The translations under genes were made by a program, and so were the position numbers. This document shows, one piece after another, positions 1 to 58,542 of a DNA stretch of 64,000 bases. Source of the stretch: Paenibacillus sp. (lineage in GTDB: Bacteria > Bacillota > Bacilli > Paenibacillales > YIM-B00363); contig JAULZZ010000122.1 in the NCBI GenBank assembly GCA_032117095.1, forward strand, positions 168-64,167. The letters are read 5' to 3'. Positions within the stretch are counted from its first letter, which is position 1. Each line of letters opens with the position of its first letter. The notes below the pieces were generated by a model. The model saw only the letters and a program-made list of their open reading frames with translations, searched no databases and was not told the DNA's origin.

Positions 1-37
1 GAAAACATATGCACAGATGGCTACCTTTTGCGGGAAA

Positions 38-114
38 GAAAAAGGAGGTTTAACCGAGGCGGAAAGGAGAGGCCTTTTTGCTGGGGGAATATCGTTTAAA
101 ATCGTGATTCGTAT
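38..114. repeat. Degenerate copy of family-1 palindromic intergenic element (subfamily B)
   Basis: ggtttaaccgaggc...cgtttaaaatcgtgattcgtat matches 26207-26272 and the arm/terminus (cgtttttaatcagtgtttagtat) of full copies. It lies upstream of the real hepT start and inflates ORF 17..1120. Confidence 0.6.
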
Positions 115-148
115 AAGATGCGATCAACATGAGGATGCGGGTGAACGA

Positions 149-1120
149 ATGCAGTTGTTACGGGTGTACCAACGTTTAAGCAAAGACATTGCGCATATCG
201 AACGCCAATTGCGTGCGAGCATGGATACGGAACCGTCCGTACTTTATGATGCTTCTGCACACCTACTGATGGCAGGGGGAAAACGGGTGCGCCCGATTCT
301 CGTGTTGTTGTGTGGGCAGTTTGGTACGTATGATGTGGAGCGACTGGCGCATATTGCTGTGCCTTTAGAGCTCATCCATATGGCGACACTCGTGCACGAT
401 GACGTCATCGATCAAGCAAACACCAGACGCGGGAAACCCACTGTACGGGCACAGTGGGGCTCGCGCATTGCAATGTATACGGGAGACTATATTTTTGGAC
501 GCGCTCTGTCTATCGCAATGAATGTCCAGATGCATACGGTGCATCATACGTTGTCCAAAGCGATGGTACAAATGGTCATCGGAGAAATTGCCCAGTTGCG
601 TTCGTTTTATGTCCTCGAACAAACCGTGCGCGACTATTTATTGCGCATCCGACGCAAAACAGCGTTGCTCATTGCGACATCGTGTCAACTGGGAGCACTT
701 GTTGCAGGGGCATCTGAGGCGGTCGCCCAGCGGCTGTACACATTCGGATACAACATGGGGATGGCGTTTCAAATTCGTGACGATATGCTCGATCTCACTG
801 GGACATCAAAGCAACTCGGCAAGCCCCCAGGCAGTGATATTCGACAAGGTAATGTGACATTGCCAATTTTGTATGCGATACAACAACCCCATATTCGTGA
901 AGCCGTCATGGAGGTGTTTCATCTCCGTGACGCTGTTCCGCATCGTATGCTCGAAAATACATTGGCGATGATTCGACATAGCGAAGGGATGAAACGCGCA
1001 GATGCATTGGCACACCGGTTTATTGCACGTGCGATTGCAGCGTTAGATCCTTTGCCTGCGATTACAGCAAAGGCGGATTTACTCACGATGGCACGGATGA
1101 TGACGGATCGGGCGTATTGA
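149..1120 (+). CDS. hepT: Heptaprenyl diphosphate synthase component II (trans-polyprenyl synthetase)
   Basis: Both polyprenyl synthetase Asp-rich motifs are present (LVHDDVIDQ and FQIRDDMLD). I chose the internal ATG at 149 (MQLLRVYQRL) because residues upstream are encoded by a repeat element. Confidence 0.85.
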   Translation: MQLLRVYQRLSKDIAHIERQLRASMDTEPSVLYDASAHLLMAGGKRVRPILVLLCGQFGTYDVERLAHIAVPLELIHMATLVHDDVIDQANTRRGKPTVRAQWGSRIAMYTGDYIFGRALSIAMNVQMHTVHHTLSKAMVQMVIGEIAQLRSFYVLEQTVRDYLLRIRRKTALLIATSCQLGALVAGASEAVAQRLYTFGYNMGMAFQIRDDMLDLTGTSKQLGKPPGSDIRQGNVTLPILYAIQQPHIREAVMEVFHLRDAVPHRMLENTLAMIRHSEGMKRADALAHRFIARAIAALDPLPAITAKADLLTMARMMTDRAY

Positions 1121-1163
1121 TGGGGGCGAACCAAATATTTTCTGATGCTACCGAATTGATGTG

Positions 1164-1268
1164 ATATTAAACACTGATCAAAAACATCTACGAAAGAGGA
1201 TCTTCTTTTACGAGAAAGCACAGTCATTTTTAACCAATAGGATTCCTGTATTTAAACAGTGTTAGTGT
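1164..1268 (+). repeat. Family-1 MITE-like palindromic element, full length
   Basis: atattaaacactgatcaaaaacatc...tttttaaccaataggattcctgtatttaaacagtgttagtgt aligns end to end with the 21866-21971 copy. Confidence 0.8.
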
Positions 1269-1275
1269 GTGCCTC

Positions 1276-1304
1276 TTGACAACGCATGCATCATGGTATA
1301 TAGT
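1276..1304 (+). promoter_or_regulatory. Consensus sigma-A type promoter (TTGACA-17 nt-TATAGT)
   Basis: TTGACA at 1276-1281, a 17-nt spacer, TATAGT at 1299-1304. It would drive a short transcript ending at the 1347-1397 hairpin. Confidence 0.6.
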
Positions 1305-1499
1305 AGGAAAATAAACATAGCAGTCGCAACATCGGCGAAGAGGAAACACCTCTCGTTTTGCTCATACGAGCAGACGAGGGGTGTTTTTGTCTTTTTTGTG
1401 GATGCATTGCTTGTTTTGCACTCTCTGCATAAAACGACAGGAGGACAAGGAAAAGGGGGTGAAAAAGGCGTGTTCAAGGCAGCGGTCATGTGGTACAAT
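1283..1499 (+). repeat. Copy A of a duplicated ~215 bp module (hairpin-terminated short transcript plus extended -10 promoter)
   Basis: Aligns along its whole length with 2637-2845 (cgcatgca..acatcggcgaagaggaa..ctcgttttgctcatacgagcagacgag..ttgcactct..gcataaaacg..gtgttcaaggca.cggtcatgtggtacaat). Confidence 0.85.
1347..1397 (+). terminator. Intrinsic terminator / 3' hairpin of candidate small RNA
   Basis: CACCTCTCG-TTT-TGCTC-ATAC-GAGCA-GA-CGAGGGGTG followed by TTTTTGTCTTTTTT. Confidence 0.7.
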
Positions 1500-1621
1500 G
1501 AAGGAGCATACGCATCGCCATACGTCATACGACTTGGTATAAAGTGTGAAAAAGCGAACGTTCCGTAAATACGGAACAAAGACGCACCACACAATACCAC
1601 GACGTAGAGGAGAGAAAGCGT

Positions 1622-2617
1622 ATGCGACCACCGATGCAAGGAGGCAATGGACGACGGCATCAGAAAACACGTCGATCCAAAAAACGCCTCGCGGAGAAAC
1701 GCAGGGAAGCCACAGGAGAAGGCATTGTGCCGTCTTCGGAGGAAACGCACATCCCGCATGATGAAATTTTCAAGCAGTTGCTATGCATGTTTTACAAGGA
1801 GTTTATGGAGTTATTTTTACCCGATATTGCGGAACAACTCGATTTTACGCATGCGACGTTTTTGATGCAACAGCAGTTTATGGACAACATAGGGAATAAA
1901 GTGTTGGAGCTCGACTTGTTGCAAGGCGTCGTGCACAAACAAACCCAAAAAGGTGTACGGATACAGTATGAACCTCAATCGTATAAAGATCCGACATTTG
2001 CAAAACGAATGTTCGAATACGGCTATCGGGTGGTCGATCGGTATCGGGACAAAGACGAAATGTTCATTCCCATTGCCCTGTTCACGGGAGACCATGTGGG
2101 AAAAACCCCAGACACGTATACGATGAAAACAATGGGAAAAGATTTGTTCGTGTATCGGTATTGGGTCATCGTACTGCGGGAGTACGATTGGCAAGAAATG
2201 CAACATTCGGACAATCCCGTCGCAGCCGCCATCCTCGTAAAAACGAAGTATACGCCATCGGAAAAACGGGAAGTGCGCAAGGCATATTTGAAGATGATCT
2301 GTCGGTTGTACGAGAAAAACACATCACGGGCTCATTTGGGAATGATCATGGGCGTGGCAGACACTTATTTTGCGCCAACCAAGGAGGAAGACGAAGCATT
2401 GCTGCGAGAACTCGGCATCGAACAAAAGGAGGTGAACAAGATGGAGATCATGCCTGCATGGGAGCGTTGGGGGTATGAAAAAGGCATCGGTCAAGGGCGT
2501 CAAGAAGGAGTCGCTACTACGGTGATGAAGTTTCTCAACAAAGGATTCACGGCGGAGGAAATTGCCGAAACGATCGAATTGCCTGTGGAACAAGTCAAAA
2601 AAATGGCGCAAGGGTAA
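1622..2617 (+). CDS. Rpn-family recombination-promoting nuclease / PD-(D/E)XK 'putative transposase' (YhgA-like)
   Basis: N-terminal HDEIFKQLL motif typical of Rpn/YhgA proteins. Candidate nuclease residues are ELDLL and RIQYEPQ. The C-terminal GIGQGRQEG...FTAEEIAETIELPVEQVKKM tail matches the family. RBS GAGGAGAG lies 7 nt before the ATG, and the extended -10 promoter TGgTACAAT ends at 1499. Confidence 0.7.
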   Translation: MRPPMQGGNGRRHQKTRRSKKRLAEKRREATGEGIVPSSEETHIPHDEIFKQLLCMFYKEFMELFLPDIAEQLDFTHATFLMQQQFMDNIGNKVLELDLLQGVVHKQTQKGVRIQYEPQSYKDPTFAKRMFEYGYRVVDRYRDKDEMFIPIALFTGDHVGKTPDTYTMKTMGKDLFVYRYWVIVLREYDWQEMQHSDNPVAAAILVKTKYTPSEKREVRKAYLKMICRLYEKNTSRAHLGMIMGVADTYFAPTKEEDEALLRELGIEQKEVNKMEIMPAWERWGYEKGIGQGRQEGVATTVMKFLNKGFTAEEIAETIELPVEQVKKMAQG

Positions 2618-2636
2618 GTTAGTGGTTGATCGCACA

Positions 2637-2845
2637 GCGCATGCACCATGGTGTATCGTAAGGAAAAAAATGGTAACATCGGCAAAGAGGAAGCGCCGCT
2701 CGTTTTGCTCATACGAGCAGACGAGCGGTGTTTTTTGTCTTTTTTGTGGGTGCATTTTGCGTTTTGCACTCTGCATAAAACGTCAGGGGGGCAACGGAAA
2801 GGGGGTGAAGAAGGCGTGTTCAAGGCAACGGTCATGTGGTACAAT
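2637..2845 (+). repeat. Copy B of the duplicated ~215 bp module
   Basis: Direct repeat of 1283-1499, located immediately after the Rpn gene stop. It ends with the same TGgTACAAT box (2837-2845). Confidence 0.85.
2694..2745 (+). terminator. Intrinsic terminator hairpin (copy B)
   Basis: CGCCGCTCG...CGAGCGGTG followed by a T-run. Relative to copy A, a T.G pair has become G-C through changes on both strands of the stem. Confidence 0.7.
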
Positions 2846-3215
2846 ACGTTGATTGCACAGCTCCGCTACAAACGTGCAGAAGTCGGCATTGCGTTGATCG
2901 AGCAGGCAGAGTCTTATGCTAATACTAATTCCAAACAAATATATCGACACAATAACGTGCGTGTGATACAAAGAATATGCGATAGCGCTGAGAAAAGAAA
3001 TGCAAAAACGAAGAAAAATGTGAACGCATACAAACGGTTAGAAGTAGTCGCATATGGTGGCGTGGGAAAAGAAGAACAAAGAAATCGTCACATTGACAGG
3101 ATATAACGCCGATGATGTGGAAATGTTGGCAAAGAAATCGGTTACCGGCGGGATACACGATCAAAAGTATTACAGGGAGAGACTGGAATTTTATCGATGT
3201 TTTAGTTTGGAATTA

Positions 3216-3322
3216 GTATAACTAAATACGGATTAAAAACGTCTATGTAGAGCGTTTGCTTTATTATGATAAAAATAATTTTTAACCAATAGGAGCGCTG
3301 TATTCAAATTGTGTTTAGTATT
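3216..3322 (+). repeat. Family-1 MITE-like element, full length
   Basis: gtataactaaatacggattaaaaacgtctatgtagagcg...tttttaaccaataggagcgctgtattcaaattgtgtttagtat. Confidence 0.8.
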
Positions 3323-3404
3323 ACAACGAAAAAACATCATCTTTAAGATGTCCTTTGCTAAATCCAAGAAACTGTACCCCATCCTATACCCCCGCCCACA
3401 TTGC

Positions 3405-3818
3405 TTATTTTCGCGGATAATACGTCATCATCCGCCCATTGAACAACGTCAACTTTGCCCGAAATCGTTTTGCCAGAAATCTGCACAACTCGTTGCCTTT
3501 TGCCTTGTCGCCGTGCGTATGTCCATCGGGCAACACGACTTGGATGTATGCGTCTTGCGTTTCTCCCTCGTGCCCCACGCCAATGACGATCGTCCGGTAC
3601 ATTTCCTGTGTCCCTTTGAGATAAAACCATACATTTTCTCCCTCAGGTTTCATGTGCATCGTATAGGGAAACGCAGCTGCAGCATAGTCCCATTGCAACT
3701 GTGCCCCCGTACGCCCAACTTGCTCGATATAGTGTGAAAGCGCATGTTTGACATCGTCGAGCGTCACCGATTGGACGATCGATTGGTCGGTCAACTGAAT
3801 TTTCGCTACTGCAACCAT
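3405..3818 (-). CDS. Small conserved hypothetical protein (possibly DUF1885-like)
   Basis: Clean ORF with GGAGGG 8 nt upstream of the ATG for MVAVAKIQL. It is co-directional with, and 37 nt downstream of, speA. The family name is from memory only. Confidence 0.55.
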   Translation of the reverse strand: MVAVAKIQLTDQSIVQSVTLDDVKHALSHYIEQVGRTGAQLQWDYAAAAFPYTMHMKPEGENVWFYLKGTQEMYRTIVIGVGHEGETQDAYIQVVLPDGHTHGDKAKGNELCRFLAKRFRAKLTLFNGRMMTYYPRK

Positions 3819-3855
3819 ACAGCATCCCTCCTGCTCCACGCATGACGTGGTTGTT

Positions 3856-5337
3856 TTATTCTTCGATCGCCCGTTGCTCGACGATCACTTTGACCATTTT
3901 GTTTGTCTTGTCTTCTAAGCCTTGAACAGGCAGACCAATAAGGGTTTGTTCTTGGATATACGCAATGTTTTGCTGGGAAATGACTTCGCCAGGCAACAAG
4001 ATGGGGATGCCCGGTGGATAAACCATAATAAATTCAGCGATAATGCGCCCATCGGCTTCTTCGAGTGGGATGGATTCGGTCAGCGCATAAAACGCATCGC
4101 GCGGCGCCAACGCTAACGTGGGGATGTGTGGATTTTTTACGGTGACTGCATGGATAGGGGTACGGCGTTGTGCCTGTGTTTGGGCAATGGCATGGATCGC
4201 ATCGATGAGGCGATGTATCGTGACTGGGGTGTCTGCGGGGGTGATGATGCACAGGATGTTGTACATATCGCTCATTTCGACTTCGATGCCGTGCTGTTTA
4301 CGCAACAACGTTTCCATCTCAAAGCCAGTCATCCCGAGCGCACGTACGTGAATCGTCAGTTTGGTCGGATCCATGTCATACAGCGTTTCGTTGCGGGGCG
4401 AGACGAGGTCTAGGCAAGAAATTTGCGGCACAGCACAGAGGAGACGACGCGCTTCTTGGGCAAGATCGATCGCTTTTTGGGCAAGGGCTCTGCCATGAAG
4501 GGCAAGTTGGCGACGGGCTGCATCCAAGGAGGCGAGGAGCAAATAAGAGGTGGACGTCGTCGTGAGCATGGACAACATCGTCTGCACGCGTTTGGGGTCG
4601 ACTAGCGAACCTTGTACGTTGAGCACGGAGCTTTGCGTCAGAGAACCACCGAGCTTGTGTACACTCGTCGCAGCCATATCTGCACCTGCCTGCATGGCAG
4701 AGCACGGCAACGCCTCGTGAAAGTGAATATGTACGCCGTGTGCTTCATCGACCAACACGGGAATGCGGTACGCATGCGCAAGAGTGACAATTTCGTGAAG
4801 ATTGGCACAAATCCCAAAATAGGTTGGATTGATCACGAACACCGCCTTGGCATCGGGGTGCCGTTCCAATGCTTTTTGGACAGCGCGCGTCGAGATACCA
4901 TGGGCAATGCCGAACGTTTCATCCATGGTCGGGGATAAGAACACGGGACGTGCACCCGAAAAGATGATGGCGGACATGACAGACTTGTGCACGTTGCGGG
5001 GCAGGATGATCTTATCTCCAGGGCGACATACCGCCATGATCATCGCTTGGATCGCACCGCTTGTCCCTTGTACAGAAAAAAAAGCGTGCTCTGCACCAAA
5101 AGCGTCCGCCGCCAGCCTTTGGGCCTCTTGAATGATGCCTGACGGTTGGTGTAAATCGTCCAAGGGAGCGATGTTGATCAGATCGATGGACAACGCCGCA
5201 TCTCCGATAAAATGGCGGAATGCCTCATCCATGCCTGCACCACATTTGTGTCCGGGAATGTGAAACTGCAATGGTTTTTTGGCCGCATGGGCTACGAGGG
5301 CATCAAAAAGCGGGGTATGTGCTTGATTCATTGTCAT
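3856..5337 (-). CDS. speA: Arginine decarboxylase (Orn/Lys/Arg decarboxylase, PLP fold type I)
   Basis: Near-colinear with remembered B. subtilis SpeA (QFHIPGHKCGAGMD, FFSVQGTSGAI, PVLVDEAHGVHIHFH, TSVHKLGGSLTQSS containing the PLP lysine). Confidence 0.88.
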   Translation of the reverse strand: MTMNQAHTPLFDALVAHAAKKPLQFHIPGHKCGAGMDEAFRHFIGDAALSIDLINIAPLDDLHQPSGIIQEAQRLAADAFGAEHAFFSVQGTSGAIQAMIMAVCRPGDKIILPRNVHKSVMSAIIFSGARPVFLSPTMDETFGIAHGISTRAVQKALERHPDAKAVFVINPTYFGICANLHEIVTLAHAYRIPVLVDEAHGVHIHFHEALPCSAMQAGADMAATSVHKLGGSLTQSSVLNVQGSLVDPKRVQTMLSMLTTTSTSYLLLASLDAARRQLALHGRALAQKAIDLAQEARRLLCAVPQISCLDLVSPRNETLYDMDPTKLTIHVRALGMTGFEMETLLRKQHGIEVEMSDMYNILCIITPADTPVTIHRLIDAIHAIAQTQAQRRTPIHAVTVKNPHIPTLALAPRDAFYALTESIPLEEADGRIIAEFIMVYPPGIPILLPGEVISQQNIAYIQEQTLIGLPVQGLEDKTNKMVKVIVEQRAIEE

Positions 5338-5563
5338 TTCAGCCTTTCTTGTGAACAGACATCAATAGCGCCACTGTTTTTATCGTACACGCATTGTATC
5401 ATAAGTGGTTCGTTGTCGTGAACTGTAAACTGATTTTTTCTCTGTGTATTCATATTTTATACTTTTGTTTCCGATAAACTGTGATAAGGCGGACAACGGG
5501 GAGTCGTGCGTCGGTTACCTATTGCGCTATTGGCAAATGGGTGGGTGTATTTCCTTAACGCTG

Positions 5564-5661
5564 ATACGAAACACAGATTTCTATGCAGAGGTGCTCTTTT
5601 TACGAGAAAGCAAAGGGATTTTTAACCAATGGCATGTCTGCATTCAAAAAGTGTTTCGTAT
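5564..5661 (+). repeat. Family-1 MITE-like element
   Basis: atacgaaacacagatttctatgcagaggtgctctttttacgagaaagca...tttttaaccaatgg...attcaaaaagtgtttcgtat. Confidence 0.8.
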
Positions 5662-5850
5662 CGTTTCACACATCAAAAAAATCGCAAAAACCGCCATTTC
5701 GCAGGATTCAAACAAAAATTAAACCTTATAAAACAAGAAAATTTTTCAAAAGTTATTGCCTTTTTGCGCAAAAAGGTGTACGATGAGAGCATCCGAATTC
5801 TCTCTATTTTTTTGTTTGATCAATTTTTCCTATTATAAGGAGGGGTTGTC

Positions 5851-6447
5851 GTGAACAAAAATAATGAGGTAGAATACTGCAACGTGGATTTGCGGTTTGA
5901 TCGGAGGATGATTCATACGTTTATTAAGTCCTTCGTACAAGAGGGATATGCCATGTACTGGTCGGAGAGCGACACGCAGTTTGTCGCGTCGATTCGTTCT
6001 GGGGTGAAGATGATTAAGCTTAAATTTTATCGTATCGGCGATCGCTTTAAGCTCAACGGCAATTACATGTTCAAAGACGAGAAACTCATCGGTTTGATGG
6101 AGAAGATGATCGGCACGACACGGGGGCATGCGATTGTCAAACGCCTGCGGGATCATCATGTGATTATTGAGAACATTATGTTTGGTGAAGTGATTCGCAC
6201 GGTAGAAGTATCGGGCATGGACCACAAAGTCATCGGCAACGGGCATACTGGGGTGACAATCCATGACATTCACCAAGCATACTTTTCCAATCGGATTGAA
6301 CAACGCATTGCTCAACTGCACCAAACGGTGGATGAACAGCTGGTGCGTTTGCGCGACGCATTGCATGCTTGTGATGGGCAGGCGGTCACAGAGGCCAAAG
6401 CACAGCTAGATCGCTGTCGTCATGAGATGGTACAATTAGAGGCATAA
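5851..6447 (+). CDS. Hypothetical protein with C-terminal coiled-coil-like segment
   Basis: GTG start 8 nt after AAGGAGG. The composition looks protein-like and I recognised no family motif. Confidence 0.55.
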   Translation: MNKNNEVEYCNVDLRFDRRMIHTFIKSFVQEGYAMYWSESDTQFVASIRSGVKMIKLKFYRIGDRFKLNGNYMFKDEKLIGLMEKMIGTTRGHAIVKRLRDHHVIIENIMFGEVIRTVEVSGMDHKVIGNGHTGVTIHDIHQAYFSNRIEQRIAQLHQTVDEQLVRLRDALHACDGQAVTEAKAQLDRCRHEMVQLEA

Positions 6448-6484
6448 TCCTACATCAATGAGATTGTGAGCGTGAGAAGCAACG

Positions 6485-7927
6485 ATGCAAAATGAGACAA
6501 CAAAAACAAAGATTGCGATGGTCGGGCTAGCGGTCATGGGGAAAAATTTAGCACTCAATATGGCGAGTCGAGGCATCTCCGTGACCGTGTATAACCGTTC
6601 GGCGATAAAAACCGAGGAGCTCATGGCAGAAGTCCAGCACCAACCACACCTTTTGCCTTTCATTCATCCGGTATATTCGATTGCGCAGTTGGTGCAAGCC
6701 GTAGAGCGACCACGCAAACTGATGTTGATGGTAAAGGCAGGGGAAGCAACCGACGATACGATCGCCATGATTGCCCCCCATTTGGAAGCAGGAGACATCA
6801 TCATTGATGGGGGCAATGCGTATTTCGAACATACGATGCGACGTGTTGCCCTGTTGGCTCCACAAGGCATTCATTTTCTCGGCGTTGGCGTTTCAGGAGG
6901 CGAAGAAGGCGCATTGCGGGGACCTGCCATCATGCCTGGTGGAGACGCACAAGCATACGAGGCAGTCGCCCCAATTTTTACTGCGATTGCCGCACGAGTG
7001 CAGGAACAACCGTGTTGTGCATATATGGGGGTCGGTGGTGCAGGGCATTACGTGAAGATGGTACATAACGGCATTGAGTACGGGGACATGCAACTCATTA
7101 GCGAAGCGTATCACGTCCTAAAAGACATTTTCGGATGTACGCCAGATGCGTTGCATGATATCTTTTCTGCATGGAATGAGGGCGAATTGGATAGTTACCT
7201 CATCGAGATTACCGCCCAGATTTTTGCGGCGAAGGACGTGCATACCGACGAGCGGATCATCGATATGATCTTAGATCGTGCGAGCCAAAAAGGCACCGGC
7301 AAGTGGACGAGTGTCGATGCGCTTGATCAGGGGGTTCCGCTGACGATCATTACTTCTGCGGTGTTTGCACGGTATTTGTCCGCCCAAGTTGCCGAACGCC
7401 ACCATGCGAGTACGGTGCTGCGTGGTCCACAGCCGTCGACCATCCCTTCAGCACAACGGGACACATGGATCGAGCGGGTGCGTCAAGCGTTGTTCGCATC
7501 CAAAATATGCTCCTATGCACAAGGGTTTGCGCAGTTGCGTGCTGCATCTGCGCAGTATGGTTGGCAGTTGCCTTTTGTGGAGATCGCCAAGCTGTTTCGC
7601 GGAGGGTGTATTATCCGTGCCCGTTTTCTCCAAAATATCGCCGATGCGTATATCAGGCAACCAGATTTGCCAAATTTGATACTCGATGAGTATTTCCAAC
7701 ATGCGATCGATCAATACCAGCACAGTTGGCGGGCGGTCGTTTCCCTTGCGGTGGAGCAAGGCATTCCCGTGCCGGCGATGAGTGCTGCATTGGCGTATTA
7801 CGATGCGTATCGAACAAAACGGTTGCCAGCCAACTTGATTCAGGCGCAACGGGACTATTTTGGTGCGCATACGTTTGAGCGAATTGATCGTCCTGGCACG
7901 TTTCACCATCCGTGGAGTGGCGCATGA
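6485..7927 (+). CDS. gndA: 6-phosphogluconate dehydrogenase, decarboxylating
   Basis: NAD(P)-binding IAMVGLAVMGKNLALN, plus GGNAYF, HYVKMVHNGIEYGDMQLI and RDYFGAHTFER. Confidence 0.92.
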   Translation: MQNETTKTKIAMVGLAVMGKNLALNMASRGISVTVYNRSAIKTEELMAEVQHQPHLLPFIHPVYSIAQLVQAVERPRKLMLMVKAGEATDDTIAMIAPHLEAGDIIIDGGNAYFEHTMRRVALLAPQGIHFLGVGVSGGEEGALRGPAIMPGGDAQAYEAVAPIFTAIAARVQEQPCCAYMGVGGAGHYVKMVHNGIEYGDMQLISEAYHVLKDIFGCTPDALHDIFSAWNEGELDSYLIEITAQIFAAKDVHTDERIIDMILDRASQKGTGKWTSVDALDQGVPLTIITSAVFARYLSAQVAERHHASTVLRGPQPSTIPSAQRDTWIERVRQALFASKICSYAQGFAQLRAASAQYGWQLPFVEIAKLFRGGCIIRARFLQNIADAYIRQPDLPNLILDEYFQHAIDQYQHSWRAVVSLAVEQGIPVPAMSAALAYYDAYRTKRLPANLIQAQRDYFGAHTFERIDRPGTFHHPWSGA

Positions 7928-13065: not shown

Positions 13066-13169
13066 TACTAAACACTGATTGAATTCAGGAATCCTATTGA
13101 TTTAAAAGTACAGTGATTTCTTGTAAAATGGGGCTCTTGGTATGGACGTTTTTAATCAGTGCTTAGTAT
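13066..13169 (-). repeat. Family-1 MITE-like element, full length, in the PTS leader
   Basis: atactaaacactgattgaattcaggaatcctattg...tatggacgtttttaatcagtgcttagtat. An extra solo terminus agtgttagtat follows at 13174-13185. Confidence 0.8.
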
Positions 13170-17411: not shown

Positions 17412-17495
17412 ATCCCCTATCGAGTAAAACGCCTTTTGCTTTTCCGCAAAATGCAGCCTGCTGTACGTATGGTTTTAATCAGTGTTTCATATGGG
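17412..17495. repeat. One-armed family-1 element (subfamily B)
   Basis: cctatcgagtaaaacgccttttgcttttccgcaaaatg...gtacgtatggttttaatcagtgtttcatat. Confidence 0.65.
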
Positions 17496-28806: not shown

Positions 28807-28933
28807 ATACGAATTGCGCATGGGGAAACATATGCACTGAGGGCTCCTTCTGCGGGAAAGCAAAAGGGATTTTAACGGGGACAGCAAGGCGTAGTCTTTC
28901 CGTGAGGGATGTGTGTTCAACTCGTGTTTATAC
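28807..28933. repeat. Family-1 element, subfamily B
   Basis: catacgaattgcgc...ctccttctgcgggaaagcaaaagggattttaacgggga...ctcgtgtttatac is related to 61046-61159. Confidence 0.6.
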
Positions 28934-29034
28934 TAAACACTGATTGAATACAGGAATCCTTTTGGGCAAAAATCACGGTGATTTCTTGTGAAACAGGGCT
29001 ATTCGTATGGACGTTTTTAATCAGTGTTTAGTAT
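28929..29034 (-). repeat. Family-1 MITE-like element, full length, abutting the previous copy
   Basis: tatactaaacactgattgaatacaggaatcc...tatggacgtttttaatcagtgtttagtat. Confidence 0.8.
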
Positions 29035-30953: not shown

Positions 30954-31062
30954 AATATTAAACACTACTGATTGAATTCAGGAATCCTATTGGTTAAAAA
31001 GCGCAGTGATTTATTGTGAAATGGGGCTCTTGGTATGGACGTTTTTTATCAGTGTTTAGTAT
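30954..31062 (-). repeat. Family-1 MITE-like element, full length
   Basis: aatattaaacactactgattgaattcaggaatcctattggttaaaaagcg...tatggacgttttttatcagtgtttagtat. Confidence 0.8.
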
Positions 31063-34859: not shown

Positions 34860-34965
34860 AATACTAAACACTGATTAAAAACGTTCATACAGAGCGATTC
34901 CTTTTACGGGAGATATCAGTATTTTTTAAACAATCGGATTTCTGTATTCTATCAGTGTTTAGTAT
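34860..34965 (+). repeat. Family-1 MITE-like element, full length, overlapping the ppx stop codon
   Basis: aatactaaacactgattaaaaacgttcatacagagcgattccttttacggg...ctgtattctatcagtgtttagtat. Confidence 0.8.
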
Positions 34966-36578: not shown

Positions 36579-36683
36579 ATACGAAATACGGATTAAAAAT
36601 GTCTATGCAGAGCGATTCCTTTTAAGAGAAAACTCAGTAATTTTTAACCAATACGATTCCTGTGTTCAAACCGTGTTTCGTAT
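36579..36683 (+). repeat. Family-1 MITE-like element, full length
   Basis: atacgaaatacggattaaaaatgtctatgcagagcgattccttttaagagaaaactcagtaatttttaaccaatacgattcctgtgttcaaaccgtgtttcgtat. Confidence 0.85.
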
Positions 36684-45774: not shown

Positions 45775-45838
45775 ATGAAAGTCGCATTGTTGCAGGGGAA
45801 TTTTTGAGTGTGACACATCGATGCTTAGGATGATACGT

Positions 45839-45911
45839 TCCCTGATAGCTCAGTTGGTAGAGCACTCGGCTGTTAACCGAGTTGTCACAGGTTCGAGTCC
45901 TGTTCGGGGAG
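45839..45911 (+). tRNA. tRNA-Asn (GTT)
   Basis: Cloverleaf: acceptor TCCCTGA/TCGGGGA, anticodon loop ctGTTaa, T-loop GGTTCGAGTCC. No encoded CCA. Confidence 0.9.
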
Positions 45912-45919
45912 TTCCTTGA

Positions 45920-46010
45920 GGAGAGGTGTCCGAGTGGTCGAAGGAGCACGATTGGAAATCGTGTAGGTGTGACAAGCGCCTCGAGGGTTCGAATCCCTCT
46001 CTCTCCGCCA
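45920..46010 (+). tRNA. tRNA-Ser (GGA)
   Basis: Long variable arm, anticodon loop ttGGAaa, encoded CCA. Confidence 0.9.
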
Positions 46011-46106
46011 CAGACGATCCGTCGTAATGCAAACTATCTAGTGCAACGATAAATAAAGCGAAAAACTCTGGTGCTCATGCGCAGGAATACCAATTTTATG
46101 ACATGA

Positions 46107-46181
46107 GGCCCGTTGGTCAAGTGGTTAAGACACCTCCCTTTCACGGAGGTAACAGGGGTTCGAATCCCCTACGGGTCACCA
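46107..46181 (+). tRNA. tRNA-Glu (TTC)
   Basis: Anticodon stem CCTCC/GGAGG, loop ctTTCac, encoded CCA. Confidence 0.9.
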
Positions 46182-46214
46182 TTTGCGTAGCATCAGATGA
46201 TACAATGTTTATTT

Positions 46215-46290
46215 GGACGCTTAGCTCAGCCGGGAGAGCATCTGCCTTACAAGCAGAGGGTCGGCGGTTCGATCCCGTCAGCGTCCACCA
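46215..46290 (+). tRNA. tRNA-Val (TAC)
   Basis: Anticodon loop ctTACaa, encoded CCA. Confidence 0.9.
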
Positions 46291-46296
46291 TCCTAT

Positions 46297-46370
<74 letters not shown>

Positions 46371-46373
46371 TAT

Positions 46374-46450
46374 GGAGCTGTGGTGTAGTGGCCCAACATG
46401 CCTGCCTGTCACGCAGGAGACCGCGGGTTCGAATCCCGTCAGCTCCGCCA
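46374..46450 (+). tRNA. tRNA-Asp (GTC)
   Basis: Anticodon loop ctGTCac, encoded CCA. Confidence 0.9.
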
Positions 46451-46494
46451 TAGATATACAGGTAGTATGCATAAACTACGATGCGGTGTATTAA

Positions 46495-46570
46495 GGCTTG
46501 GTAGCTCAGTCGGTAGAGCAAAGGACTGAAAATCCTTGTGTCGGCGGTTCGATTCCGTCCCAAGCCACCA
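46495..46570 (+). tRNA. tRNA-Phe (GAA)
   Basis: Anticodon loop ctGAAaa, encoded CCA. Confidence 0.9.
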
Positions 46571-46586
46571 TTTGTTGTACGGATAT

Positions 46587-46659
<73 letters not shown>

Positions 46660-46671
46660 TCCGCATATGTC

Positions 46672-46757
46672 GGAGGATTAGCGAAGTGGCCAAACGCAGG
46701 AGACTGTAAATCTCTTCCCTTACGGGTTCGGTGGTTCGAATCCATCATCCTCCACCA
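46672..46757 (+). tRNA. tRNA-Tyr (GTA)
   Basis: Long variable arm, loop ctGTAaa, encoded CCA. Confidence 0.9.
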
Positions 46758-46761
46758 GTAG

Positions 46762-46835
46762 AGGGGCATAGTTTAAAGGTAGAACAGCGGTCTCCAAAAC
46801 CGTTAGTGTGGGTTCAATTCCTGCTGCCCCTGCCA
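46762..46835 (+). tRNA. tRNA-Trp (CCA)
   Basis: Anticodon loop ctCCAaa, encoded CCA. Confidence 0.9.
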
Positions 46836-46850
46836 TCACTTGTGCGATAT

Positions 46851-46928
46851 GGCGGTCGTGGCGAAGTGGTTAACGCATCGGATTGTGGCTCCGACATTCG
46901 GGGGTTCAATTCCCCTCGATCGCCCCAT
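46851..46928 (+). tRNA. tRNA-His (GTG)
   Basis: Extra G-1 paired with C73, loop ttGTGgc, encoded CCA. Confidence 0.9.
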
Positions 46929-46942
46929 TCATTCTGTGCGCT

Positions 46943-47016
46943 GGGGATTAGCCAAGCGGTAAGGCAACGGACTTTGACTCCGTCATTCCCAGGTTCGATC
47001 CCTGGATCCCCAGCCA
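46943..47016 (+). tRNA. tRNA-Gln (TTG)
   Basis: Anticodon loop ctTTGac, encoded CCA. Confidence 0.9.
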
Positions 47017-47021
47017 ACGTT

Positions 47022-47093
47022 GCGGATGTGGCTCAGTGGTAGAGCATCGCCTTGCCAAGGCGAGGGTCGTGGGTTCGAATCCCATCATCCGCT
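47022..47093 (+). tRNA. tRNA-Gly (GCC)
   Basis: Anticodon loop ttGCCaa, discriminator T. No encoded CCA. Confidence 0.9.
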
Positions 47094-47100
47094 TCATCGA

Positions 47101-47171
47101 GGCGCCATAGCCAAGTGGTAAGGCAGAGCTCTGCAAAAGCTTTATCCCCAGTTCGAATCTGGGTGGCGCCT
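47101..47171 (+). tRNA. tRNA-Cys (GCA)
   Basis: Anticodon loop ctGCAaa, discriminator T. No encoded CCA. Confidence 0.9.
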
Positions 47172-47186
47172 TGTTTCATACTGTAA

Positions 47187-47275
47187 GCCGGGGTGGCGGA
47201 ATCGGCAGACGCACAGGACTTAAAATCCTGCGGTAGGTGACTATCGTACCGGTTCAAGTCCGGTCCTCGGCACCA
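47187..47275 (+). tRNA. tRNA-Leu (TAA)
   Basis: Long variable arm, loop ctTAAaa, encoded CCA. Confidence 0.9.
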
Positions 47276-47278
47276 TAT

Positions 47279-47352
47279 GTGCCCTTAGCTCAGCTGGATA
47301 GAGCGTTTGACTTCGAATCAAAAGGTCAGGAGTTCGAATCTCTTAGGGCACA
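47279..47352 (+). tRNA. tRNA-Arg (TCG)
   Basis: Acceptor GTGCCCT/AGGGCAC, loop ctTCGaa. No encoded CCA. It starts only 3 nt after tRNA-Leu. Confidence 0.85.
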
Positions 47353-47360
47353 CTTTACAC

Positions 47361-47440
47361 GCCGGTATGGCGGAATCGGCAGACGCGCGCGACTCAAAAT
47401 CGTGAGGGAAACCGTGGGGGTTCAAGTCCCTCTACCGGCA
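47361..47440 (+). tRNA. tRNA-Leu (CAA)
   Basis: Variable arm, loop ctCAAaa. No encoded CCA. Confidence 0.88.
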
Positions 47441-50740: not shown

Positions 50741-50944
50741 TCATAAGAAACATTGTTTGAATACAGGAATCCTGCTGGTTAAAAATCCCTTTTTTAGCAA
50801 AATGTAGCCCTATAGGACACTCTATAAACACGTTTGTAAAAAATCACCTTGCCACAAACAAATGATTTTTTGTGCATGTTTGTGCGTGTGATGGGTTTTA
50901 TAGTGGCGCCCTCTGCATCGATGTTTTTAATCCGTGTTTCGTAC
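50741..50944 (-). repeat. Family-1 MITE-like element interrupted by a family-2 element
   Basis: The left part ctcataagaaacattgtttgaatacaggaatcctgctggttaaaaatc and the right part ctctgcatcgatgtttttaatccgtgtttcgta are contiguous in other copies. Confidence 0.75.
50815..50910 (+). mobile_element. Family-2 inverted-repeat element nested in the family-1 copy
   Basis: ggacactctataaac...aaaaaatca(ccttgccacaaacaa)tgatttttt...gttttatagtggcgcc. The termini are inverted and the centre is an A-run/hairpin/T-run. Confidence 0.7.
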
Positions 50945-58214: not shown

Positions 58215-58434
58215 TATTCGTATGAGGCTCACAAATTCTTTAGAAAGAATTCGTACAAGCGTTGACGTGGATATTTTCCCATCATGGAGTACGGACAAAA
58301 AAATAGGACATCACGTTCGTGCAGGCGTATCCCGCGTTGCATGACGTGCATGTCCTTATTTTTTTTGGGCGTCCCAAACGTCCAAACCAGATGCGCTGTC
58401 GTTGCGACCATGTGGACGGCAGCATGACAGATTT

Positions 58435-58542
58435 TATACGAAACACGGATTAAAAACATTGATATAGAGGGATTACTTTTACGAGAACACACAAAGGAAT
58501 TTTTAATAAACAGGATATCTGTATTCATTCTGTGTTTCGTAT
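58435..58542 (+). repeat. Family-1 MITE-like element, full length
   Basis: atacgaaacacggattaaaaacattgatatagagggattacttttacgagaacacac...tttttaataaacaggatatctgtattcattctgtgtttcgtat. Confidence 0.8.

Follow-up and report, generated by a model that had tools for sequence, protein, structure and literature searches.

At one end of a 64-kb stretch of Paenibacillus sp. DNA (contig JAULZZ010000122.1), a gene for an Rpn-like nuclease is flanked on both sides by a non-coding direct repeat of approximately 230 bp, here called the module. The whole stretch is referred to as the window, and all coordinates and counts per window refer to it. The Rpn locus lies between the hepT and DUF1885 genes, which are convergent and stand 2.3 kb apart, and contains, in order, a D1 repeat, module copy A, a 122-nt leader, the Rpn open reading frame (ORF), module copy B, 76 unique nucleotides, a 298-nt element and a second D1 repeat; the whole island is thereby bracketed by two D1 copies of the same orientation. 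The features on which the argument turns are listed below (SD, Shine-Dalgarno sequence).

1276-1304, plus strand: promoter P1, TTGACA-17-TATAGT, sigma-A-like with an 11/12 match; strong only in copy A
1279-1499, plus strand: module copy A (repeat search, MAFFT, blastn), with weak homology from ~1261
1335-1399, plus strand: hairpin A (folding), a predicted intrinsic terminator, possibly bidirectional
1452-1472, plus strand: SD-like AAAGGGGGTGA followed by GTG (1470-1472), the possible start of a 33-codon upstream ORF, 1470-1568
1471-1499, plus strand: promoter P2, with -35 TGTTCA (weak), a 17-nt spacer and the -16/-10 element TGTGgTACAAT; likely the Rpn promoter
1500-1621, plus strand: Rpn 5' leader, of which at least 1500-1568 is common to copy C (a third copy, below) and not to copy B
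1622-2617, plus strand: Rpn-like (YhgA/Transposase_31) PD-(D/E)XK nuclease gene, 331 amino acids (Pfam, NCBIfam, alignment)
2425-2617, plus strand: internal SD AAAGGAGGTGA (2425-2435) and in-frame ATG at 2441 (Met274), an RpnS-like candidate with a 58-residue C-terminal product
2634-2845, plus strand: module copy B (repeat search, MAFFT, blastn), with weak homology from 2618
2682-2747, plus strand: hairpin B and its U-run (folding), the predicted terminator of the Rpn transcript
2835-2845, plus strand: P2', the -16/-10 element TGTGgTACAAT of copy B, of a motif class enriched in the window
2846-2921, plus strand: unique sequence of 76 nt, continuing ORF 2648-3106 (source-called gene P0005), with no homologue found

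The direct repeat and its third copy

The initial annotation of this DNA, made from the letters alone, had described direct repeats on both sides of the Rpn gene, and repeat search, MAFFT and blastn all bear this out. When the window was compared with itself by blastn, 1279-1499 aligned with 2634-2845 at 83% identity with gaps counted (E=1e-62), and the mean column identity of the two copies in the MAFFT alignment was 87% over approximately 220 nt. The 64-kb window holds only these two copies. Judging from the alignment, fainter homology probably extends to the left as far as 1261 and 2618, the second of these positions lying directly after the Rpn stop codon; copy B starts right behind that codon and no other terminator intervenes.

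Identity between copies A and B varies strongly along the module. It amounts to 73% at the left edge, 76% over P1, 57% (with an 8-nt indel) in the 5' unpaired part of the small RNA (sRNA) that has been proposed for copy A, which is the least conserved segment, 91% over the hairpin and U-run, 78% in the spacer, and 96% over the last 45 nt, from the SD-like stretch to TACAAT. The conservation of the hairpin and of the promoter-like end therefore suggests that selection acts on these two parts.

A third copy, C, is found outside the window. A phmmer search with the translation of 2768-2920 against 1.84 billion representative proteins recovered two ORFs only: P0005 of the window itself (2648-3106) and P0006, a 91-residue ORF on another NCBI contig (6393 bp), which is an in-frame translation of the module. 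This contig probably belongs to the same assembly as the window. As copy C is known from a called-ORF translation, it was compared with A and B by codon-aware threading onto them. Its hairpin is of the B type, identical in amino acids and with Arg where A has Gly, so that the base corresponding to G1379 must be C or A; its P1 -10 is of the weak B type (Tyr-Arg, that is TAY CGN), and it shares a 2-nt deletion with B. It also retains the 8-nt segment and the 3' half of copy A, continues past TACAAT into the copy A leader for at least 69 nt with two amino-acid differences, and has private changes of its own. Since copy C is a module joined to the copy A leader, the repeated unit is the module, with or without its leader, and by their pattern of changes the three copies appear to form a roughly star-like set. 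We considered a single-crossover (Campbell-type) mosaic of A, B and C and rejected it: the A-like and B-like sites are interleaved, and private changes are found instead.

Outside these three copies the module was not found. The hairpin core pattern had no match in the genome, metagenome and viral contig collections, the promoter-end pattern had none in the metagenome contig collection, and neither module A nor module B with its downstream sequence matched the plasmid collection by blastn; the source genome evidently lies outside the genome, metagenome, viral and plasmid collections searched. The module is likewise not present at the loci of the three Rpn homologues described below (L001, L002 and L004-L006).

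The Rpn gene

The product of 1622-2617 is a divergent member of its family. It scores 28.1 bits against PF04754 (Transposase_31/YhgA-like), above the cut-off of 21 (E=1.9e-6), and 45.7 bits against TIGR01784 (Rpn family), below the cut-off of 52.1. A search of 5.8 billion proteins gave, besides the protein, three relatives with identities of 42%, 32% and 31%, and no second Rpn homologue (paralogue) was found there. PADLOC gave no match, and neither did sequence and profile searches of the PDB. Residues H46, D47, D98, E117 and Q119 do not vary across the alignment with the three relatives (P0002-P0004); H46-D47, D98 and E117-x-Q119 are what we take, from knowledge of the family, to be the PD-(D/E)XK catalytic residues. 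The protein begins with an Arg/Lys-rich extension of approximately 44 residues (MRPPMQGGNGRRHQKTRRSKKRLAEKRREATGEG..., 1622-1756) that the three homologues do not have. If it started instead at a GTG at 1727 (Val36), behind AGGAGAAGG, the protein would have an N-terminus resembling that of the homologues, and the annotated start may thus lie too far 5'.

The nearest known system is that of the RpnL-RpnS toxin-antitoxin genes and the duplications at their loci (Kingston 2017, PMC5350276; Zhong 2023, PMC10400941). In this system the full-length nuclease, RpnL, is countered by RpnS, a small C-terminal protein whose translation starts inside the gene. The hallmark of RpnS is an internal SD and ATG, and a series of four-amino-acid repeats starts 8-20 residues after the internal Met (PMC10400941). 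The window gene resembles it in passing the PF04754 cut-off, in its HD...D...ExQ residues, and in having an internal SD and ATG followed by a small C-terminal product that is helix-turn-helix-like (weak matches to Sigma70_r3/r4, E=0.015-0.25). On sequence grounds the internal SD and ATG are a candidate for the RpnS-type intragenic antitoxin layout. The 42% homologue, P0002, has an internal SD, GGGAGGGAGGAAGAAGATC, and ATG at the aligned position, with six four-residue repeats [LMI]E[KQ]G after the internal Met, compared with at most two degenerate units (IGQG RQEG) in the window protein.

The same survey reports that rpn genes are gained and lost singly, without inverted repeats or target-site duplications, that rpn arrays stem from tandem direct duplication of genomic regions, and that the ends at rpn loci are variable (PMC10400941). 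The window gene likewise stands between housekeeping genes as an inserted single gene and shows neither inverted repeats nor a short target duplication. It differs from the known system in the divergence of its protein (three homologues, a sub-threshold TIGR01784 score and no PADLOC match), and in that the flanking segment, not the gene, is duplicated within the locus.

Predicted terminator and promoter elements of the module

The hairpins with T-runs that had been placed at 1347-1397 and 2694-2745 are both real, although their extents are larger than proposed, at 1335-1399 and 2682-2747. The inner stem of hairpin A, C1347-G1383, comprises 16 bp with one bulge and the loop AUAC, and the stem is lengthened by base-pairing between the A-rich 5' flank and the U-tail UUUUUGUCUUUUUU, which lies directly 3' of the hairpin in both copies. 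In 91-nt windows the energies of hairpins A and B are -37.0 and -37.8 kcal/mol (z = -6.6 and -6.2), with none of 200 shuffles folding as stably; on the reverse strand the folds are less stable (-26.5 and -23.5 kcal/mol). Both copies thus have the sequence form of an intrinsic terminator, a stable GC-rich hairpin with a U-rich tract directly after it, which a simple terminator scanner missed because of the bulge and the length of the stem.

The two copies also support the fold through the way in which they differ. The paired change that the initial annotation had seen in the outer stem, from T.G to G-C, is present as U1351.G1379 in copy A versus G2698-C2726 in copy B. The three other stem substitutions are all A<->G exchanges opposite U, which keep the pairing, and the one U inserted in an internal loop breaks no pair; every A/B substitution in the stem therefore preserves pairing in a structure that is stable in both copies. 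The module shares with intrinsic terminators a GC-rich stem followed by a U-run, an upstream A-rich stretch complementary to the U-tail, possible bidirectionality, and stem pairing preserved via compensatory and wobble changes. It differs from them in that the stem is long (16-17 bp for the inner part and ~28 bp with the A:U extension) and in that the hairpin is embedded in a repeated unit of ~230 bp. A single compensatory pair would be expected in every working intrinsic terminator and gives no particular reason to infer an sRNA. In practice, such a pair in a hairpin with a U-run should not, alone, count as evidence for one.

An sRNA was among the readings proposed at the outset; as a rival account, copy A would encode a stand-alone transcript of ~87-90 nt, running from P1 to hairpin A, which regulates the Rpn toxin or other genes and for whose sake the hairpin is kept. 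P1 is present as described, at 1276-1304 with its 11/12 match to the sigma-A consensus, and lies ~30 nt before the very stable, compensated hairpin; sites of this grade number 3 in the window versus 0.9 +/- 0.9 in shuffles. The corresponding position of copy B, however, reads CGCACA-17-TATCGT, a degraded match of ~7/12, and the -10 of copy C is likewise of the weak B type (TATCGN); the strong P1 is therefore probably a change specific to copy A. The would-be seed, at 57% identity and with the 8-nt indel, is not conserved among the copies either. Rfam 15 gave no match at E<=1 in 1-6500 (at gathering scores it finds only 17 tRNAs across the window), and pairing of the putative sRNA's 5' part with its supposed targets does not exceed background, as 24/100 and 36/100 shuffles bind as well to the translation initiation sites of Rpn and RpnS, respectively. 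As it lies on the same strand as Rpn, the putative sRNA is not antisense to it. The family, moreover, already has a protein antitoxin in RpnS, and because the Rpn gene carries an RpnS-like arrangement an RNA antitoxin would not be needed.

Among known RNA systems, the module is like 3' untranslated region-derived or terminator-sharing sRNAs, and like type I/III RNA antitoxins, in that a short putative transcript running to a terminator adjoins a toxin gene and in that its hairpin is also predicted to be the 3' end of the toxin mRNA. It differs from them in lacking antisense overlap, a conserved seed, above-background complementarity and the repeat motifs of type III, and in having its promoter in one copy only. 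The ~90-nt sRNA or antitoxin-like RNA is thus not upheld, and we regard it as unlikely.

The module's other promoter-like element is common to both copies. As had been noted, both end in TGgTACAAT, at 1491-1499 and 2837-2845; adding the two preceding bases gives TGTGgTACAAT, which fits the pattern TRTGnTAnAAT. The pattern occurs 7 times in the window versus 1.1 +/- 1.0 in dinucleotide shuffles, and another instance stands just upstream of the start of the decarboxylase gene. Because of this enrichment and of the instance before the decarboxylase gene, TRTGnTAnAAT appears to function in this genome as a genuine promoter signal, and P2 likely drives the Rpn gene.

The same 96%-conserved block can be read in another way, in which P1 is the true Rpn promoter, the hairpin a regulated attenuator, and the 3' end of the module a translated leader, read-through carrying ORF 1470-1568 and then Rpn. 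A strong SD, AAAGGGGGTGA, does stand 7-10 nt upstream of the GTG at 1470 within this block, and the 33-codon ORF recurs in copy C with two amino-acid changes. The copies nevertheless share no antiterminator, since the AGAGG/CCTCT mini-hairpin that copy A can form is disrupted in B. No homologue of the peptide beyond the module copies occurs among 1.84 billion representative proteins, the copy B version of the ORF runs on into unrelated sequence, and the TRTG-type -10 elements are, as argued above, real signals in this genome. We therefore consider an attenuator improbable.

Surroundings and proposed origin of the module

The remaining features of the island and its neighbours are as follows (MITE, miniature inverted-repeat transposable element; TIR, terminal inverted repeat).

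17-1120: hepT-like polyprenyl synthase gene (PF00348), which opens the window
1164-1266, plus strand: first flanking copy of the D1 MITE-like repeat, directly upstream of module A, with TIRs ~ATACTAAACACTG...CAGTGTTTAGTAT
1559-1578: small 8-bp hairpin CGTTCCGTAAATACGGAACA in the Rpn leader, terminator-like on the minus strand, where TTCGCTTTTT follows it
2922-3219: 298-nt MITE-like element with 32-nt imperfect TIRs (ATACTAATTCCAAAC...), single copy in the window
~3221-3320, plus strand: second flanking copy of the D1 MITE-like repeat (repeat search, blastn)
3405-3839, minus strand: DUF1885 gene
3856-5337, minus strand: Orn/Lys/Arg decarboxylase gene
5587-5660, 13066-13169(-), 21867-21970, 28931-29034(-), 30967-31062(-), 34861-34964, 36581-36682, 50748-50942(-), 58430-58541; partial 17469-17492: other D1 copies

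The initial annotation had left ~370 nt after copy B without an intact gene. The stretch is not featureless, being made up of the 76 unique nucleotides, the 298-nt element and a D1 copy. The TIRs of the 298-nt element (ATACTAATTCCAAACAAATATATCGACACAAT and its complement) are 84% identical; it begins with ATACTAA, seven nucleotides that match the D1 ends, it abuts the D1 copy at 3221, and its 55-codon ORF (3054-3221) has no family match. The D1 family itself consists of repeats of ~100-115 nt on both strands, with ~12 copies per 64 kb (~1 per 5 kb), TIRs approximately of the form ATAC(T/G)AAACAC(T/G)G ... C(A/T)GTGTTT(A/C)GTAT and the conserved core ATTTTTAACCAATAGGATTCCTGTATTCAAAC; the copy at 50748-50942 holds an insertion of ~90 nt. 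In the small hairpin of the Rpn leader, the sequence TAAATACGGAACAAAGACG resembles the left end of D1 (84% over 19 nt).

Among genes, the closest relative of the DUF1885 protein in the genome collection, at 55% identity, comes from a Paenibacillaceae metagenome-assembled genome (L003), the sole locus found; it retains the decarboxylase-DUF1885 pair and is too distant to act as an empty-site reference, and public collections seem to cover the source organism poorly. Further along the window, a tight plus-strand array of 17 tRNA genes (45838-47440; Asn, Ser, Glu, Val, Met, Asp, Phe, Thr, Tyr, Trp, His, Gln, Gly, Cys, Leu, Arg, Leu) is a cluster of the kind usual in Bacillales.

Three other identities for the module or its end were tried and rejected. 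A TnpB/IS200-IS605 fragment at 2816-2921, suggested by a W..L.YK...G motif, found no Pfam or NCBIfam match at E<=10 and none by phmmer in the PDB, and the phmmer search of 1.84 billion proteins returned only the module ORFs. For a stand-alone RpnS-like gene at the 3' end of the module, the alignment to the Rpn C-terminus was equalled by 757/2000 shuffles in copy B and is marginal in copy A, where 35/2000 shuffles score as well, uncorrected. An integron attC-like boundary is contradicted by the sequence, in which the hairpin is near-perfect and carries a U-run, a GTTRRRY core site is lacking, and the 6 kb examined showed no integrase.

Low-copy dispersed intergenic repeats and MITEs are familiar in Firmicutes, the bcr repeats of the Bacillus cereus group being an example. 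The module resembles them in being non-coding, a few hundred base pairs long, present in several copies, and equipped with a hairpin and promoter-like signals. It differs from them in that only three copies are known and in its termini, which carry no inverted repeat; it has neither the TIRs, nor the target-site duplication, nor the many copies that mark a MITE or insertion sequence, and D1, the true MITE-like family of the window, differs from it in sequence.

Taken together, these observations lead us to suggest that the module is probably low-copy duplicated gene-flanking DNA, consisting of a Rho-independent terminator and, ~90 nt downstream, a sigma-A-type promoter with a -16 TRTG element; most likely, then, the feature is ordinary duplicated flanking DNA and not a new regulatory RNA. 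The terminator of copy A would stop transcription arriving from hepT, the MITE-like repeat and P1, after which P2 would drive Rpn; with transcription ended and restarted in this way, the potentially toxic Rpn gene would be insulated from read-through. The terminator of copy B would end the Rpn mRNA, and its promoter would face a 76-nt remnant severed by two MITE-like insertions. The arrangement may have arisen by duplication or recombination of a [module-leader-Rpn] unit, either through a tandem duplication whose second gene was later lost or by homology-driven insertion beside a resident module; rpn loci are already known to spread and increase in number along such lines. Both a promoter/terminator cassette accompanying Rpn and the scar of a duplication had been put forward at the outset, and both fit the conserved parts of the module and the third copy at an Rpn-type leader.

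Several points weigh against this account. The -35 of P2, TGTTCA, is weak, and the 96%-conserved end also holds a good SD and GTG, so that it could be the start of a small ORF instead. The sequence after copy B bears no trace of a second Rpn gene. Finally, termination at the hairpin, firing of P2 and the route of duplication are all predictions from the DNA.

A more active role for the repeats may also be envisaged, in which they are the functional ends of a single-gene cassette, RecA-dependent or Rpn-promoted recombination inserts or excises [leader-Rpn], and the module serves as landing pad and insulator. The locus has the layout expected of such a cassette, with exactly one gene bracketed and copy B beginning at its stop codon; another module with its leader exists elsewhere, probably in the same assembly, and the gain and loss of rpn as single genes (PMC10400941) would suit it. 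The copies are 13% diverged, however, and therefore have not exchanged recently, and the three of them form a star-like set with private changes instead of the clean mosaic that a crossover would leave. Among the 5.8 billion proteins there is no second Rpn homologue, and because of this copy C is apparently followed by no intact Rpn paralogue, unless its contig ends there. None of the three Rpn homologues carries the module, and the published survey found rpn loci with variable ends (PMC10400941). We consider such a cassette very doubtful. A combined form, in which the module is a portable insulator and homology cassette that moves Rpn by inter-module recombination and copy A has also spawned a short RNA sharing its hairpin with the 3' end of the Rpn mRNA, has little probability for us as well.

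Were the module a recombination substrate that moves single rpn genes, it would bear on how non-autonomous defence genes spread, a question that is still open (PMC10400941). If, as we suggest, it is duplicated flanking DNA, the locus would be an example of a horizontally acquired, potentially toxic Rpn gene insulated by terminators on both sides, and would show rpn loci growing via duplication of the DNA that flanks them, a result that is useful for annotation and, for the family, unsurprising.

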